Below are positions 20,598 through 26,500 of a DNA stretch of 64,000 bases, in pieces. This DNA is from Escherichia coli (GTDB lineage Bacteria; Pseudomonadota; Gammaproteobacteria; Enterobacterales; Enterobacteriaceae). Made by a program: the position numbers. Every line of letters starts with the position of its first letter. Position 1 is the stretch's first letter. The DNA lies in assembly GCF_003019035.1 (NCBI RefSeq), contig NZ_CP027448.1; one strand, written 5' to 3'.

Positions 20598-23500
20598 TCA
20601 TCACACAGTTTTTTACCCATCTTGTCACTGTGGAAAGGCCAACATCCATAGCTTTGGCGGCATCTGCCACCATGTAATTCTGGTCAACAACCAGTTGAGC
20701 GGATTCGCGTTTAAACTCTGCGCTGAAATTTCTTTTTTTCATTGGAGCAACTGTCTTGTTCTGAGGTGAGTATATCACTTCTGTTCAGGTGCCAAATTCA
20801 GTGTGCCACTTCAACTCTCCAGATCAATGCGATCAGTAAAAAAGTTTAGTACTGACTACCTTAGAAAAAGCGTCCATTACATCACTACACATCAGAAATT
20901 AATCCTGAAACCAATACTACCCATTACCGGCGATTCAATATTACTTCCTTTCTGATAGATGGCTTCTGCCCACACCCCCGTGTTCGGCGTCAGTTGAGTG
21001 CTTATCCCGGCACCGTATTTCCCTGTTGTACCTGAGACATCGTTAATAAAGTCATAGATGTCATTTATCCGAACCCTGTTGTTATCCGAAAACTCATGGC
21101 TGATTGCGGTTATCAGGTACGGTCTGATGACGCTTCCAGCAATATCAAAATTCATGCCAAGATTAACACCTACTTCACCCTGAAGTGATTTTATTGTACC
21201 TGCTTTCGCCTCCATACCGTTATCCAGACTGATATCCTGTGCCTCTGCCATGAATGCTGTACTACGGATATAAGGCTGAATCCAGGTATTTTCATTCATA
21301 GTGAAGCTTCGGCCTGCTTCCAAACTACCACCAAAGCCATTCTGATGATAATCTCCTTTTACAGCCGTGCCGTCATTCATCCAAGTGCGAACATCGTTAC
21401 TGAAACGGTTGATTTTGATAACGCCATCCACATAGTAACCATCGTTGTTAAACCAAGTTGAATACAAACCACCGCCGATACTTCCTACTGTACTCCTACC
21501 ACCACGGTTATGACTAATACTGTTATCTGTATAGGATATGAAAGCTCCCACAGCCAACTGACTATCATTCAGTTCAAAAACTGTGTCACCTCCAGTCTCT
21601 ATCCCTCTCTGTGTCAGTGAATAACCTGAGCCTGCTCCACCACTAATGCGATTATCTGACCCAATGTACCGCCCCCAGACGCCACCTGGTGAACGAGTGT
21701 TCTGCCTGACATCGCCATGTCGGAAGCGCAGACTCTGAAGCTCATTATTGAATACATATATAGGCGAGGAGGCCATATTCAGTACTGCATCAGCCGATTT
21801 TGTTGTATTACGTACTACCTGTTCCGGATTTTCTGTCCCCTGCTGACCGCTATTGGCTTGCAGATACCAGTCCGTGTTTTCCTTGTTCAGGTAATATTCC
21901 CAAGTCCCGTAATCTACTTTCCCTCCCTTTAGGGTGAAGTCGGCATTGCCTCCACCGGTCTGCACAACCCGAAGTGGAATACCTGCGGATACCGGCTCCT
22001 GACCGGTGTTTTGAATATCCAGCAAAAAATTACCACTGGCATTACCGGCGACTTTCAACATATCTCCAGTATGCGACGCAATATCGGTGTTCATCCGAAA
22101 GGTCCCGCTACCTGACAGACTCCCAAGCGACAGAGAAACCGCCTGGAAATCTGGCTTCAGACTTGTGGTTGGCGATGGTAGAAAATCCACGGTCCCGTTA
22201 TCCATCGTAAGTGTACTGACAGTTGAGTCGCTTTCCAGATGCCAGACTGATGAACCTTTAATTACCACGTCACCTACTCCGGTTCTATCTCCAATAATTC
22301 TGCCCGTCAGGATAGTGCTATTATCCAGAGTCAAGATAGTACCTGGCTGTGTTGTCAAATTAGCTTTAGCTGTAAGAGCATTCATCGTCATGGCACCTCC
22401 ACTCTTAAGTAGAATCCCTCCGTCCTGAGATAACAGACCGCTGAAGAGGGTACTTCCGCCTTCCTGAATCAGGTTCCCCGTACCCGTGAGGATATTTGCA
22501 AAAGTAGCGTTACTGTTATTAAAGAAATACAACGTCCCTTCATTTGTTACCACATCCCCTGTCAGTATACTTTTATCCAGCAAAATGGTCGTGCCACGGA
22601 GCACTCCTCCGTTGTGCACATCCAGCGTCCCGTTGCTGCCCACCTCCGTATCGCTGGCCTGGTGAGAGTCAAGCACCGTCAGATATCCGCCATTTTCCAG
22701 TAACATATTGGTTGCTCTGCCGCCTATGATACTAAAACTGCCTTTATCATTGGTGCCGTTCACGACTGAACTGGTATTGGTGACGAGAGCCCCACCACTA
22801 TTCTGGGTAACCTGTGAGGCTGAGCCACCGCCCTCTACCTGCAGCATGCCACCGCTGTTAATGTTCGTTTCTGCAACGCTTCCAGAGATGTAAACACTCT
22901 GATGTCCACCACCGTTAACGGTTGTATTCGTGGCACTACCTCCACCGGAAACAGACTGAAGACCACCGCTGTTAATGATAGTGTCAGTAGCTATGCCATG
23001 GACCACCATCTCTCCACCACCGTTAACGGTTGTATTCGTGGCACTACCTCCACCGGAAACAGACTGAAGACCACCGCTGTTAATGATAGTGTCAGTAGCT
23101 ATGCCATGGACCACCATCTCTCCACCACCGTTAACGGTTGTATTCATGGCACTACCTCCACCGGAAACAGACTGAAGACCACCGCTGTTAATGATAGTGT
23201 CAGTAGCTATGCCATGGACCACCATCTCTCCACCACCGTTAACGGTTGTATTCATGGCACTACCTCCACCGGAAACAGCCTGAAGACCACCGCTGTTAAT
23301 GATAGTGTCAGTAGCTATGCCATGGACTACCATCTCTCCACCACCGTTAACGGTTGTATTCGTGGCACTACCTCCACCGGAAACAGCCTGAAGACCACCG
23401 CTGTTAATGATAGTGTCAGTAGCTATGCCATGGACCACCATCTCTCCACCACCGTTAACGGTTGTATTCGTGGCACTACCTCCACCGGAAACATACTGTA

Positions 23501-26500
23501 ACCCACCACTGTTAATGGTAGTATTCGTTGCCTGATGTCCGTTGAGAACAGAGAGATTACCACCATTCTCCAACCTCATATTGTTGGCACTACCATCAGC
23601 AATACTAAAGCTACCGTTAATGTTTGCGCCACTTAGGGTAGCACTAGTGTTTGTATAAATGGCCCCACCGCTGTTTTGTGTAATGTCAACAGCACTGCCG
23701 CCAGCCTCTACTTCCAGTGTACCTTCATCATTAATCGTCGCGCTCATAGAGCTGCCGCCGCTGTAAACATACTGCAGCCCATCACTATTAACAGTAGTAC
23801 TAGTAGCACTACCGCTGGTATCGATATACTGCTGCCCGCCAGTGTTAATAGTGGTACTGGTGACACTGCCACCACTATTAACATACTGGTACCCAGAGTT
23901 AATGGTGGTAATAATAGCAGTGCCGCCGCTCTCGACACTCTGGCTCCCAGAGTTAATGGTAGTACTTGTCGTACTGCCGCCTCCGTAAACATCCTGCAGC
24001 CCATCACTATTCACAATGGTACTGGTGGCACTGCCTCCGCTATAGACATACTGCTGTCCGCCACTGTTTATAATGGTACTGGTGGCGCTAGCTCCCGTCC
24101 CGAATATACTTTGGTATCCACCATTGATAGTGGTACTTATTGCACTGCCACCACTGATGACAAACTGCTCACCACTGCTATTAATAGTGGTATTTTCCGC
24201 TGTATCACCTTCATTCAGAGTCATGGAGGGGCTTGTTCCTCCACTACCCAGAGTCTCATTGTCATAACTCACCGCCAGTACATGCTGTGACGGCATAAGC
24301 AGACCGGCAATCAGTCCGGCCAGTACGGTACTCCTGAGTTGACGATGTTTACGGAGCAGGTCTGAAGTCCCCCCCCACATCACTGTGAACTCATTACAGG
24401 CTATGGTATAAACCTTATTCATTGTTTGTTCCTTTAGCCGTTAATCAAAAAAGTATGGAGTTTACTGATAACACCATTGACCTGTGTTCCTGTTATCAGC
24501 CGGGTACATTCAAATTGCCGTTCTGTATTTTTATGTCTGGGACACCACATAAAATCTTTATGGTTAAAATTTAAAGACGTATCGTCCCAACATCCGTTAC
24601 AGCCGTGAGAGTTAAATATCCTCCATGGAGTATAAAATTCACTGTTAGGAAGACTAAAGCCACTTATCAGTACTACTGGTATATGGGCTGCCCATGCCAG
24701 CCATGACAGCCCACTGGACAAACCAATAAAAAAACTGGCATGATGCAGAAGGTTTACCCTCTCCTGTAAAGGAATGTTTCCGGTGAAGTTCTCAGCACCC
24801 CAAGGGATGTGGTTCCAGATAAATCCCTGACCATAATGCGCGTCCCGGTCAATACATAGAACCCGATAACCCAGTGATTTCAGATGAGTAATGACCTCAC
24901 TCCAACCTGTGCCGTTGTTCCAGTATTTAGCTTGGCAGGTGGACTGTGTAGCAATGCACACATAAGGCTCCCTGATAACCCGGGCCGCAGACAGGTCAAG
25001 CCGGACGGGAGCTTCATATGGGGCAACGCCAAGAATGTAGCCAGCAGAACGGTGAAAACCGACTTTGCGAAAATCCACCGGCTGATTGTCGGTATTGCCT
25101 TCAAAATAGAGCCCAACGCGATATGTAGCATAAGGCGCAACCGTACACGGGTTATCAGGCGTAGAAAACTGTATCTGCGGATACTGGGACGACAGCAGGT
25201 CTATAATGTCCTGTGCCATCGTACACTCCAGTCGGCACTTGTGCAGATCTAGGAACCGTTCTGCATAAGGAAACCAACCGAGTAGATCACCTAATGTCCC
25301 TGTCGGGAATGAAATCAACACCGGACGGTCTTTTAATTCCAGTGTTTCATCTAAAAGGGGTTCATCTTCCCCCTGGCGGAACACCTGAATGTGGAAACGG
25401 ACAAAATATTTCTTGCGGCTCGTCACCCACCCTTTATCTGTATCACAGCAAAAAAGAACATTGTTTGAATCCGCATCAAACAGACGCACATGCCATTTCC
25501 CTTCAGGAAGCAATATACGCGCACCATCATTGAAATCATAAAGAATATTTTCAGGTCCACTCTGTGTTGGTGTATTAGGTGGACGAACAAAAAACATGTT
25601 TTTTTTCATGCAATTAACTCAATAATGTAATGTAAAGGAAAGGTGTATAGTTATTCAAGCATGATGAGCAAGAATTTTAAACGCCATAACCCAGTCTATT
25701 TATCACACATTCTAAATATATTTTTAAGAGTATTCTTAAAGGTATTCACAAAACTAAGCATAAGACATGATATTGATATTCGCCAATCTATCGTAAGCGT
25801 ATTATTTCAAACATCTGTTTTCTTTCATCAGGTTTCACAAAAATAAAGTCATTTATTTTGAAGTGCGCCAACAAAATTAGACACCGACCCAAAACTTGAG
25901 AGCATATAGCAACGTTTTCATTGGAGTTCAAAACGGTAGTATCAGAAAAGCACCTAGAGGAATAGTGGAGTCTGAAATCTTTAGCAAGGATGTACAGTAT
26001 CAGTCCCTGCATAATAAGAAAATGGACTTATGCCTATCGGAGCATGAGATCAGCATACTTATGGGTAAAAAAGGACGATATTCTTCAGAGGTAACAGCTC
26101 CCCGCCAGTCGGGCGAGGCTTCCCACTTTTTAAGCCGCAACTGTCTGTACTATGGATGTACACTGGCATCCATGGACAAAGACGACAAGTCCCGCTGCCT
26201 TCATTCCAGTATTCCTTTTTGCCGGATGTTGAGCGCTGCATTGATATTGCAGTCATGTTCAATACCACATTACAGGTATCGCCAGATGAGTTTATGAAGT
26301 GGCATTGTAAGTATCCCGCATAATCGTGCCATTCATATTTAGAGATCATCCGGCATAATCAATCCGCTAACGAAGGAGATCGCTATGCGTAAAGCCCGTT
26401 TTACTGAGCATCAGATCATCGCTGTGATTAAGTCAGTTGAAGCCGGACGAACCGTTAAAGATGTCTGCCGGGAGGCCGGTATCTCTGAAGCCACCTACTA

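Follow-up and report, generated by a model that had tools for sequence, protein, structure and literature searches.

The question raised by the locus considered here is whether short sequence repeats set the expression of an Escherichia coli surface adhesin and, if so, which of them. The locus lies in a stretch of 64,000 nucleotides of contig NZ_CP027448.1 (assembly GCF_003019035.1), which is called the window below and is numbered from its first letter. It consists of a heptosyltransferase gene followed by an autotransporter adhesin gene of the AIDA/TibA type. A first-pass annotation had pointed to a run of eight G in the signal region of the adhesin gene (G8) and to a run of eight A behind the start codon of the heptosyltransferase gene (A8), and had proposed that both support slipped-strand ON/OFF switching. 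In E. coli, phase variation is classically explained by inversion of DNA and by Dam methylation rather than by simple sequence repeats (SSRs), and the species is not known for SSR contingency loci in nature. When copies of the locus are compared, the tract that varies most is a third one, the pentanucleotide (TTACA)n, just upstream of the first start codon (ATG1) of the heptosyltransferase gene. Our reading is that the pair forms a plasmid-borne locus of the tibCA type in which TTACA number tunes expression gradedly, G8 is essentially fixed, and alleles with seven or nine A (A7, A9) are read from a second start codon (ATG2). Taken jointly, these statements give the best explanation of the data, and we hold them with moderate confidence.

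The comparison covered 47 non-duplicate copies, namely the window, nine complete plasmids, draft contigs, and three metagenome contigs, and every tract was measured in each. The TTACA tract is truly hypervariable, with nine alleles of 2–11 copies: two copies were present in 30 cases, three in 3, four in 2, five in 2, six in 4, seven in 3, and eight, 10 and 11 in one case each. Variants have come from many independent projects, including complete plasmids from the USA, UK, Hong Kong, and Switzerland, as well as many drafts and metagenome contigs. Since the 5-nt unit grows to 55 nt, this variation is not a sequencing error of the homopolymer type. The first-pass annotation missed the repeat because the window has just two copies of it. 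Copy number tracks a tri-allelic site, GTGAAT[A/G/T]CC, at minus-strand position 25743, which lies 134 nt upstream of ATG1. The ‘A’ haplotype, to which the window belongs, has two copies in 10 of 10 cases; 2, 3, 4, 6, and 7 copies occur with the ‘G’ haplotype; and the ‘T’ haplotype shows 2, 5, 5, 6, 6, 6, 7, 8, 10, and 11. Within one haplotype the flanks differ by a median of only 0–3 substitutions in 2343 nt though the number of TTACA units changes. A relation of the repeat to TTAC, the target of IS608-type elements, was considered on account of a TnpB remnant ~480 nt upstream and dropped, as no supporting evidence was found.

As in SSR contingency loci, all three tracts lie where a change in length would alter either the reading frame or the promoter and leader, (TTACA)n near ATG1, A8 in codons 2–4, and G8 in codons 16–18. 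In the case of TTACA, the most likely effect would be a graded tuning of both genes, either by a longer leader or by shifting upstream promoter elements. Two promoter-like sequences illustrate these possibilities. If TTGAAT-18-TACATT were used, added copies would lengthen a very short leader from ~12 nt up; if TTGGCG-18-TATGCT (147 nt upstream) were used, the tract would lie inside the leader, beside the ribosome-binding region. The tri-allelic site at 25743 is just downstream of the latter sequence, in an otherwise near-identical surrounding. Such control would be nearer to that of the 7-bp repeats upstream of hmw1A and hmw2A in non-typeable Haemophilus influenzae than to an ON/OFF switch. 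In both cases a short non-triplet repeat, of a copy number varying between isolates, stands just upstream of the gene for a glycosylated adhesin, and in the HMW system more copies generally lead to less transcript (PMC2424069). The HMW adhesins differ in that they use two-partner secretion and the N-linking HMW1C, and in having 9–28 repeats vs 2–11 here. A reason for the contrast among the tracts of the window can be proposed from DNA repair. The mismatch repair system of E. coli deals efficiently with loops of 1 nt but poorly with those of 5 nt. The 5-mer may vary, and the homopolymers of eight hardly do so, because pentanucleotide loops would escape this repair.

Several points weigh against a regulatory role of the repeat. 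Both promoter-like sites score just ~9 bits with a position weight matrix (PWM), which is weak, and a scan for consensus promoters and terminators gave no more matches than shuffled sequences, with none at the TTACA tract. When leaders with 2–11 copies were folded, the tract was unstructured and the accessibility of the start site was unchanged (0.47–0.49). The minimal two-copy allele dominates, being present in 30 of the 47 copies, and the spread of the others is also expected of neutral slippage. The sample is not random, as the longest contigs were favoured and one look-up was biased to gene calls at ATG2, and the argument from mismatch repair rests on textbook knowledge. With these points taken into account, we consider a regulatory role quite possible, a little short of evenly balanced. 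Leader RNA structure was also tried as the mechanism. An imperfect inverted repeat (TCATGC..AACT / AGTT..GCATGA; 25610–25690, minus strand) brackets TTACA and includes ATG1. Its predicted stem is weak and long-range, going from -7.8 to -6.7 kcal/mol between 2 and 11 copies; since it loses only ~1 kcal/mol and accessibility stays constant, this candidate was rejected. No RNA family was matched in an Rfam scan of 24300–26500.

The same evidence bears on a neutral reading, in which every length difference among the repeats is of neutral or technical origin, only ordinary regulators act (nearby AraC-, PerC-, and LuxR/EAL-type proteins, and H-NS), and TTACA is a passive microsatellite in a leader made of insertion sequence (IS) debris. 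Upstream of ATG1 there is a TnpB remnant, then an IS3-family fragment (26094–25784), and then 177 nt unique to the locus that abut these fragments, as this reading would have it. It is also favoured by the dominance of two copies, by the absence of any predicted effect on promoter or RNA structure, and by TTACA numbers among which multiples of 10 bp are not favoured. On the other hand, the tract is only 16 nt away from the start codon, in a region in which initiation is usually sensitive to the length and sequence of the leader, and comparable promoter-proximal repeats modulate adhesin expression in other species (PMC2424069). In addition, the open reading frames (ORFs) are intact in 45 of the 47 copies amid heavily decayed surroundings, so that the locus is arguably used. 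We regard wholly neutral polymorphism as on the unlikely side, though as a reading of real weight.

The A run gives a different picture from that first proposed for it. It does directly follow ATG1, as annotated, but its coordinates had been given 5 nt off, as 25594–25601. As read from the assemblies, its length is A8 in 43 of the copies, A7 in three (L029, L030, L033), and A9 in one (L034). This sample of variants is biased, because all four were obtained by looking up the 387-aa product that starts at ATG2. That product (P0019) is on 64 contigs vs ~1000 for the 391-aa forms, and four of ten sampled were A7 or A9, from which a run other than A8 is estimated in a few percent of assemblies. The A7 and A9 alleles appear in at least three different contexts and are therefore independent events. 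The A run is not a clean OFF switch, since ATG2 keeps the 387-aa ORF open at A7 or A9. In these alleles initiation would move to ATG2, and the amount of enzyme should be lowered, not abolished.

The G run has also been found in codons 16–18 of the adhesin gene (ATG TGG GGG GGG ACT, encoding M-W-G-G-T), 1 nt away from the 24368–24375 first assigned to it. It is G8 in 45 of the 47 copies, including every draft-assembly and metagenome contig sampled, G7 in RM8082, and G9 in mip270_05. In the two exceptions, both of them complete-plasmid assemblies, the tract is the sole frame lesion and the remainder of the ORF is intact. With G9, the frame of ATG1 of the adhesin ends at codon 25 and the next in-frame start is Met43, beyond the signal peptide, so this allele is predicted to be OFF. 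With G7, the frame runs to a stop at codon 37, and an ORF of 1197 aa is opened by a GTG that overlaps codons 15/16. The start of this ORF (MGGTSDLLRKHRQLRSTVLAGLIAGLLMPSQHVLA) is that of a classical signal peptide without the N-terminal extension, and the G7 allele may not be OFF if this putative start serves. Both lengths thus give the premature stops that had been foreseen, though ‘within ~15 codons’ was only roughly right. In TibA and two other relatives the corresponding sequence is ATG TGG GTC GTT ACC (MWVVT), and hence the run is lineage-specific; relative to them, it arose through four changes to G within an otherwise conserved motif.

Some of these data are what would be expected if G8 and A8 were working slipped-strand contingency switches that turn adhesin and glycosyltransferase ON and OFF at high frequency. 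The placement is classic, in the signal-peptide codons of one gene and in codons 2–4 of the gene upstream; the G7 and G9 alleles have no lesion other than the tract, as reversible switching predicts; the A7 and A9 alleles come from at least three contexts; and it took four changes to G to build the G run. Furthermore, the sister plasmids mip270_05 and mip270_22 differ at the G tract with no substitutions in 50 kb. However, they show exactly two indels there, the G8/G9 difference and a C7/C8 difference between katG and the gene for cytochrome b562. As only three G/C runs of at least 7 exist in these 50 kb, two of three differ between the sisters, a pattern that suggests noise in base calling or neutral slippage. 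For RM8082, sequencing was by PacBio RSII (PMC9729726), and the annotated frameshift of its traI gene is likewise one base missing from a G run, as compared with mip270_22; this lesion is consistent with a long-read homopolymer miscall. Since both assemblies show further discrepancies in G/C runs, true slippage and miscalling are inseparable for G7 and G9, and homopolymer ‘phase variants’ in assemblies made from long reads only are not to be taken at face value. Besides traI, traD of RM8082 (both genes within 4626–12763 of p1RM8082) and traF of mip270_22 (5225–5966) are annotated as frameshifted.

True contingency loci display mixed tract lengths across isolates, and runs of 8 slip rarely in mismatch-repair-proficient E. 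coli. The near-uniform G8 does not match such loci, and the ORFs that remain at A7/A9 (from ATG2) and at G7 (from GTG, with a signal peptide) also speak against clean switches. Further G7 or G9 alleles were sought by look-ups of the exact products expected (the 651-aa C-terminal ORF and the 1134-aa ORF starting at M43), and none is on record; such look-ups are unable to measure variation of the G tract, because pseudogenes probably carry no product in NCBI records. When metagenomes were scanned for the surroundings of the tract by means of a gapped pattern, a single contig was found, with G8 and two TTACA copies. Nor are the runs remarkable by length, since the counts in the window are near those expected from a first-order Markov model at 44.7% GC (G/C runs of at least 8: two observed vs ~0.9 expected; A/T runs of at least 8: six vs ~4.6); what is notable about G8 and A8 is only that they stand at the 5' ends of neighbouring genes. 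Homopolymer switching of this kind is, in our view, distinctly unlikely. The proposal of ON/OFF control is not established for G8, which is nearly uniform, and is weakly supported for A8, which does vary, with another consequence than the one proposed, given that the ATG2 ORF persists. Switching at the population level is not supported for G8, which would be at most a rare mutational route to OFF.

The genes that these repeats precede or lie in form a locus of the tibCA/aah-aidA type, and both ORFs are at the places given by the first-pass annotation, in the tibC-tibA order on the minus strand (Table 1). The 11 nt between them and the analogy with aah-aidA and tibCA imply that they are co-transcribed as an operon. 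From its sequence the pair is classed as a further glycosylated adhesin system of the TibCA/Aah-AIDA type, of an ordinary kind that annotation pipelines routinely name.

Table 1. Positions in the window of the genes and sequence elements of the adhesin locus.
Feature	Position	Strand	Basis
BAHT-family (TibC/Aah-type) autotransporter O-heptosyltransferase gene, 391 aa	24434–25609	minus	Pfam, NCBIfam, TibC alignment
AIDA/TibA-type self-associating autotransporter adhesin gene, 1176 aa	20892–24422	minus	Pfam, NCBIfam, alignments
Intergenic spacer of 11 nt, AGGAACAAACA, with Shine-Dalgarno-like AGGA ahead of the adhesin ATG	24423–24433	minus	direct reading
Tandem array of 108-bp (36-aa) units in the passenger, 5.7 copies, 97% identity	22905–23522	minus	Tandem Repeats Finder
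G8 run, adhesin codons 16–18	24369–24376	minus	direct reading
ATG2, codon 5 of the heptosyltransferase gene, alternative start; 387-aa ORF open at A7 or A9	25595–25597	minus	sequence, product records
A8 run, heptosyltransferase codons 2–4 (AAA AAA AAC), between ATG1 and ATG2	25599–25606	minus	direct reading
(TTACA)2 repeat, 16 nt upstream of ATG1	25626–25635	minus	alignment of upstream regions
Promoter-like TTGAAT-18-TACATT, -10 in the first TTACA units (hypothetical)	25629–25658	minus	PWM scan, second-best score in the 440 nt upstream
Promoter-like TTGGCG-18-TATGCT, at the edge of the IS3-family fragment (hypothetical)	25757–25786	minus	PWM scan, best score

The first gene had been taken for a BAHT-type heptosyltransferase, and this identity is well borne out. 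The protein belongs to the family by its NCBIfam match (TIGR04414, ‘hepto_Aah_TibC’, 604 bits vs a cut-off of 200), has the Pfam domains TibC_1st (PF21129, 4e-30; the N-terminal beta-barrel domain of TibC) and Glyco_transf_9 (PF01075; GT9, with a GT-B catalytic domain), and is 87% identical to TibC (PDB 4RB4/4RAP). In TibC, Asp110 is the catalytic base, Thr226, Lys230, Arg286, and Trp305 bind the sugar, and Cys339, Cys342, Cys358, and Cys370 coordinate iron in the so-called iron-finger (PMC4358343). Loss of catalytic residues would have spoken against the assignment, and in the alignment all are kept, at residues 108, 224, 228, 284, and 303 of the enzyme of the window, as are the four cysteines (residues 337, 340, 356, and 368). 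The position of Pro300 is occupied by Ser, as in AAH (Ser294). Since the P300S mutant of TibC accepts both heptose epimers (PMC4358343), the enzyme probably uses the D,D form as well as the L,D form. By family and conserved residues, it would be a cytoplasmic, iron-containing, dodecameric heptosyltransferase that O-heptosylates Ser residues of the adhesin passenger, within its 19-residue strand-loop-strand repeats, with ADP-heptose as donor.

The second gene encodes a protein with the architecture expected of this adhesin family: an extended signal peptide (read by eye from the sequence), 19-aa strand-loop-strand repeats that build a beta-helical passenger, a pertactin-like junction, and a C-terminal beta-barrel of 12 strands. 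Pfam matches are AIDA (ten times), Pertactin, and Autotransporter; those of NCBIfam include 12 heptosylation-target repeats (TIGR04415, 332 bits) and the barrel (TIGR01414, 376 bits). As in other family members, export would take place via Sec and then through the protein's own beta-barrel, for display at the surface. The scores for AIDA-I (NF033176, 339 bits) and Ag43 (NF033177, 327 bits) are below the equivalog cut-off of 1200 in both cases, and identity is 62% to a TibA allele and 59–66% to two plasmid relatives. The adhesin can thus be classed as a distinct, unnamed member of the family, in line with its having been set apart from AIDA-I and TibA at first reading. The passenger also contains the tandem array of 108-bp units, the number of which varies among strains from about 1 to 6 (2, 3, 5, or 6 in the complete genes read). 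Product lengths on record are 1032, 1068, 1104, 1140, 1176, and 1212 aa, in steps of 36, and the changing number of units thus yields adhesins of differing length.

The state of these two genes bears on whether the locus is decaying, with the frameshifted alleles as irreversible pseudogenes in an IS-ridden region and the degenerate signal extension as a mark of relaxed selection. The neighbourhood is indeed full of frameshifted transposase remnants, regulators of the tibDB type are missing upstream in comparison with the chromosomal tib locus, and the motif of the extended signal peptide region (ESPR) is degenerate (MNKVYTIACNEFTVMWGG vs MNKVYNTVWNESTGMWVV). Yet almost every copy retains the two genes at full length and the complete set of catalytic residues, no further lesion is present in the G7 or G9 allele, and the commonest heptosyltransferase sequence is indexed in ~1750 blocks of the assembly collection, so that the locus is not rare among drafts and the enzyme sequence is widely maintained. 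We consider decay highly unlikely.

Comparison with known systems helps to define what is particular to the locus. The closest is TibC-TibA of enterotoxigenic E. coli H10407, which has the same gene order and families, the same catalytic, sugar-binding, and iron-finger residues, the beta-hairpin thumb, the same adhesin architecture, and an EAL-domain gene beyond the adhesin. Unlike it, the locus of the window is plasmid-borne, has no tibD/tibB-type regulators directly upstream, and has a 5' region, ahead of the heptosyltransferase ATG, unrelated to that of tibC. The enzyme is also 15 residues shorter at its C-terminus, with Ser for Pro300, and its gene does not overlap the adhesin gene. The G8, A8, and TTACA tracts are all absent from tibCA. 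In the chromosomal tib locus of strain 06-00048 (L016, 1010–3213), tibC is preceded, at a distance of a few kb, by genes for a tyrosine recombinase and for a ‘tyrosine-type DNA invertase’; these are a hint that tibCA is controlled by inversion in that strain, in contrast to the repeat-bearing plasmid locus. Another relative is the Aah-AIDA-I pair of diffusely adhering E. coli 2787, which is likewise plasmid-borne and bicistronic, with a Ser at the Pro300 site and 19-residue target repeats; the adhesin differs, falling far below the AIDA-I cut-off. We know of no near-perfect 108-bp tandem array in AIDA-I like that of the adhesin of the window. Taken together, the locus is set apart from tibCA and aah-aidA by its IS-derived 5' region, the Ser at the Pro300 site, the near-perfect 108-bp array and, above all, the TTACA repeat of the leader. 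Outside E. coli, the opa genes of Neisseria (CTCTT) and the homopolymeric tracts of Bordetella (PMC1891110) also have repeats in signal-peptide coding or promoter regions of surface-protein genes, but their tract lengths differ freely among isolates, unlike G8. Literature searches on this locus, on EhaJ/EgtA, and on phase variation of E. coli autotransporters by pentanucleotides or homopolymers gave no account of the locus, nor of a repeat of this kind in an autotransporter operon of E. coli.

With regard to its distribution, the locus has been found in 6 of 5,426 complete E. coli genomes, always on plasmids of 142–164 kb from cattle, manure, or farm sources, and in PLSDB on three further IncF plasmids from pooled UK cattle faeces. 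The carriers are large IncF plasmids (IncFII/FIA/FIB) of the pEHEC type, in cattle- and farm-associated E. coli. For example, RM8082 is a Shiga-toxin-producing O121:H7 strain, the plasmid of which has been described as pEHEC (PMC9729726). The neighbourhood includes katG, an S6 protease, a second autotransporter, tra genes, and abundant IS debris. Beyond the adhesin, and separated from it by IS3 debris, the window encodes a 355-aa protein with a LuxR-type helix-turn-helix and an EAL domain (17570–18637, plus strand). LuxR-type and EAL genes have also been found around tibCA in strain 06-00048, and a cyclic di-GMP-linked regulator may travel with this adhesin family.

Other length differences have been noticed on these plasmids. 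A 14-bp indel (CCGGCGGTGGGTTA) near 20492, in an IS remnant just downstream of the adhesin, is present in the window and mip270_04, not in mip270_22. Two minus-strand homopolymers, at 29468–29475 and ~29160 and 315 nt apart, co-vary between plasmid haplotypes, being T8 and G6 in the window and mip270_04, and T7 and G7 in mip270_22 and RM8082; they look linked or compensating, in a stretch without annotated ORF upstream of a PerC remnant. Finally, a pure C11 run at 42337–42347 (plus strand) lies ~160 nt upstream of an ORF for a MASE4/GGDEF diguanylate cyclase (42505–43887). Chromosomal homologues in other E. coli have an interrupted C run (CCGCCCCACCC or shorter), and the perfect C11 is for this reason specific to this plasmid copy and that of VG35A2.

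The repeats might also act together, as a contingency locus of several layers in which TTACA serves as a graded volume control of the entire operon, the A run chooses the start codon, the G run chooses the form of the signal peptide, and recombination acts on the 108-bp units; we consider this very unlikely. If it were true, the A run would uncouple the glycosyltransferase from the level of adhesin and bring about phase-variable glycosylation; G8 would give the extended signal peptide, G7 the classical one only, via the overlapping GTG, and G9 no adhesin; and recombination of the 108-bp units would vary the length and antigenicity of the adhesin. The unusual point about the locus is a strongly length-polymorphic pentanucleotide directly upstream of an E. 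coli operon for an adhesin, carried by virulence plasmids of bovine strains that include Shiga-toxin producers. If it tunes expression, it would be a case of natural repeat-driven adhesin variation in E. coli that would explain differences in adherence between strains, and it would matter wherever this adhesin is to serve as marker or antigen.

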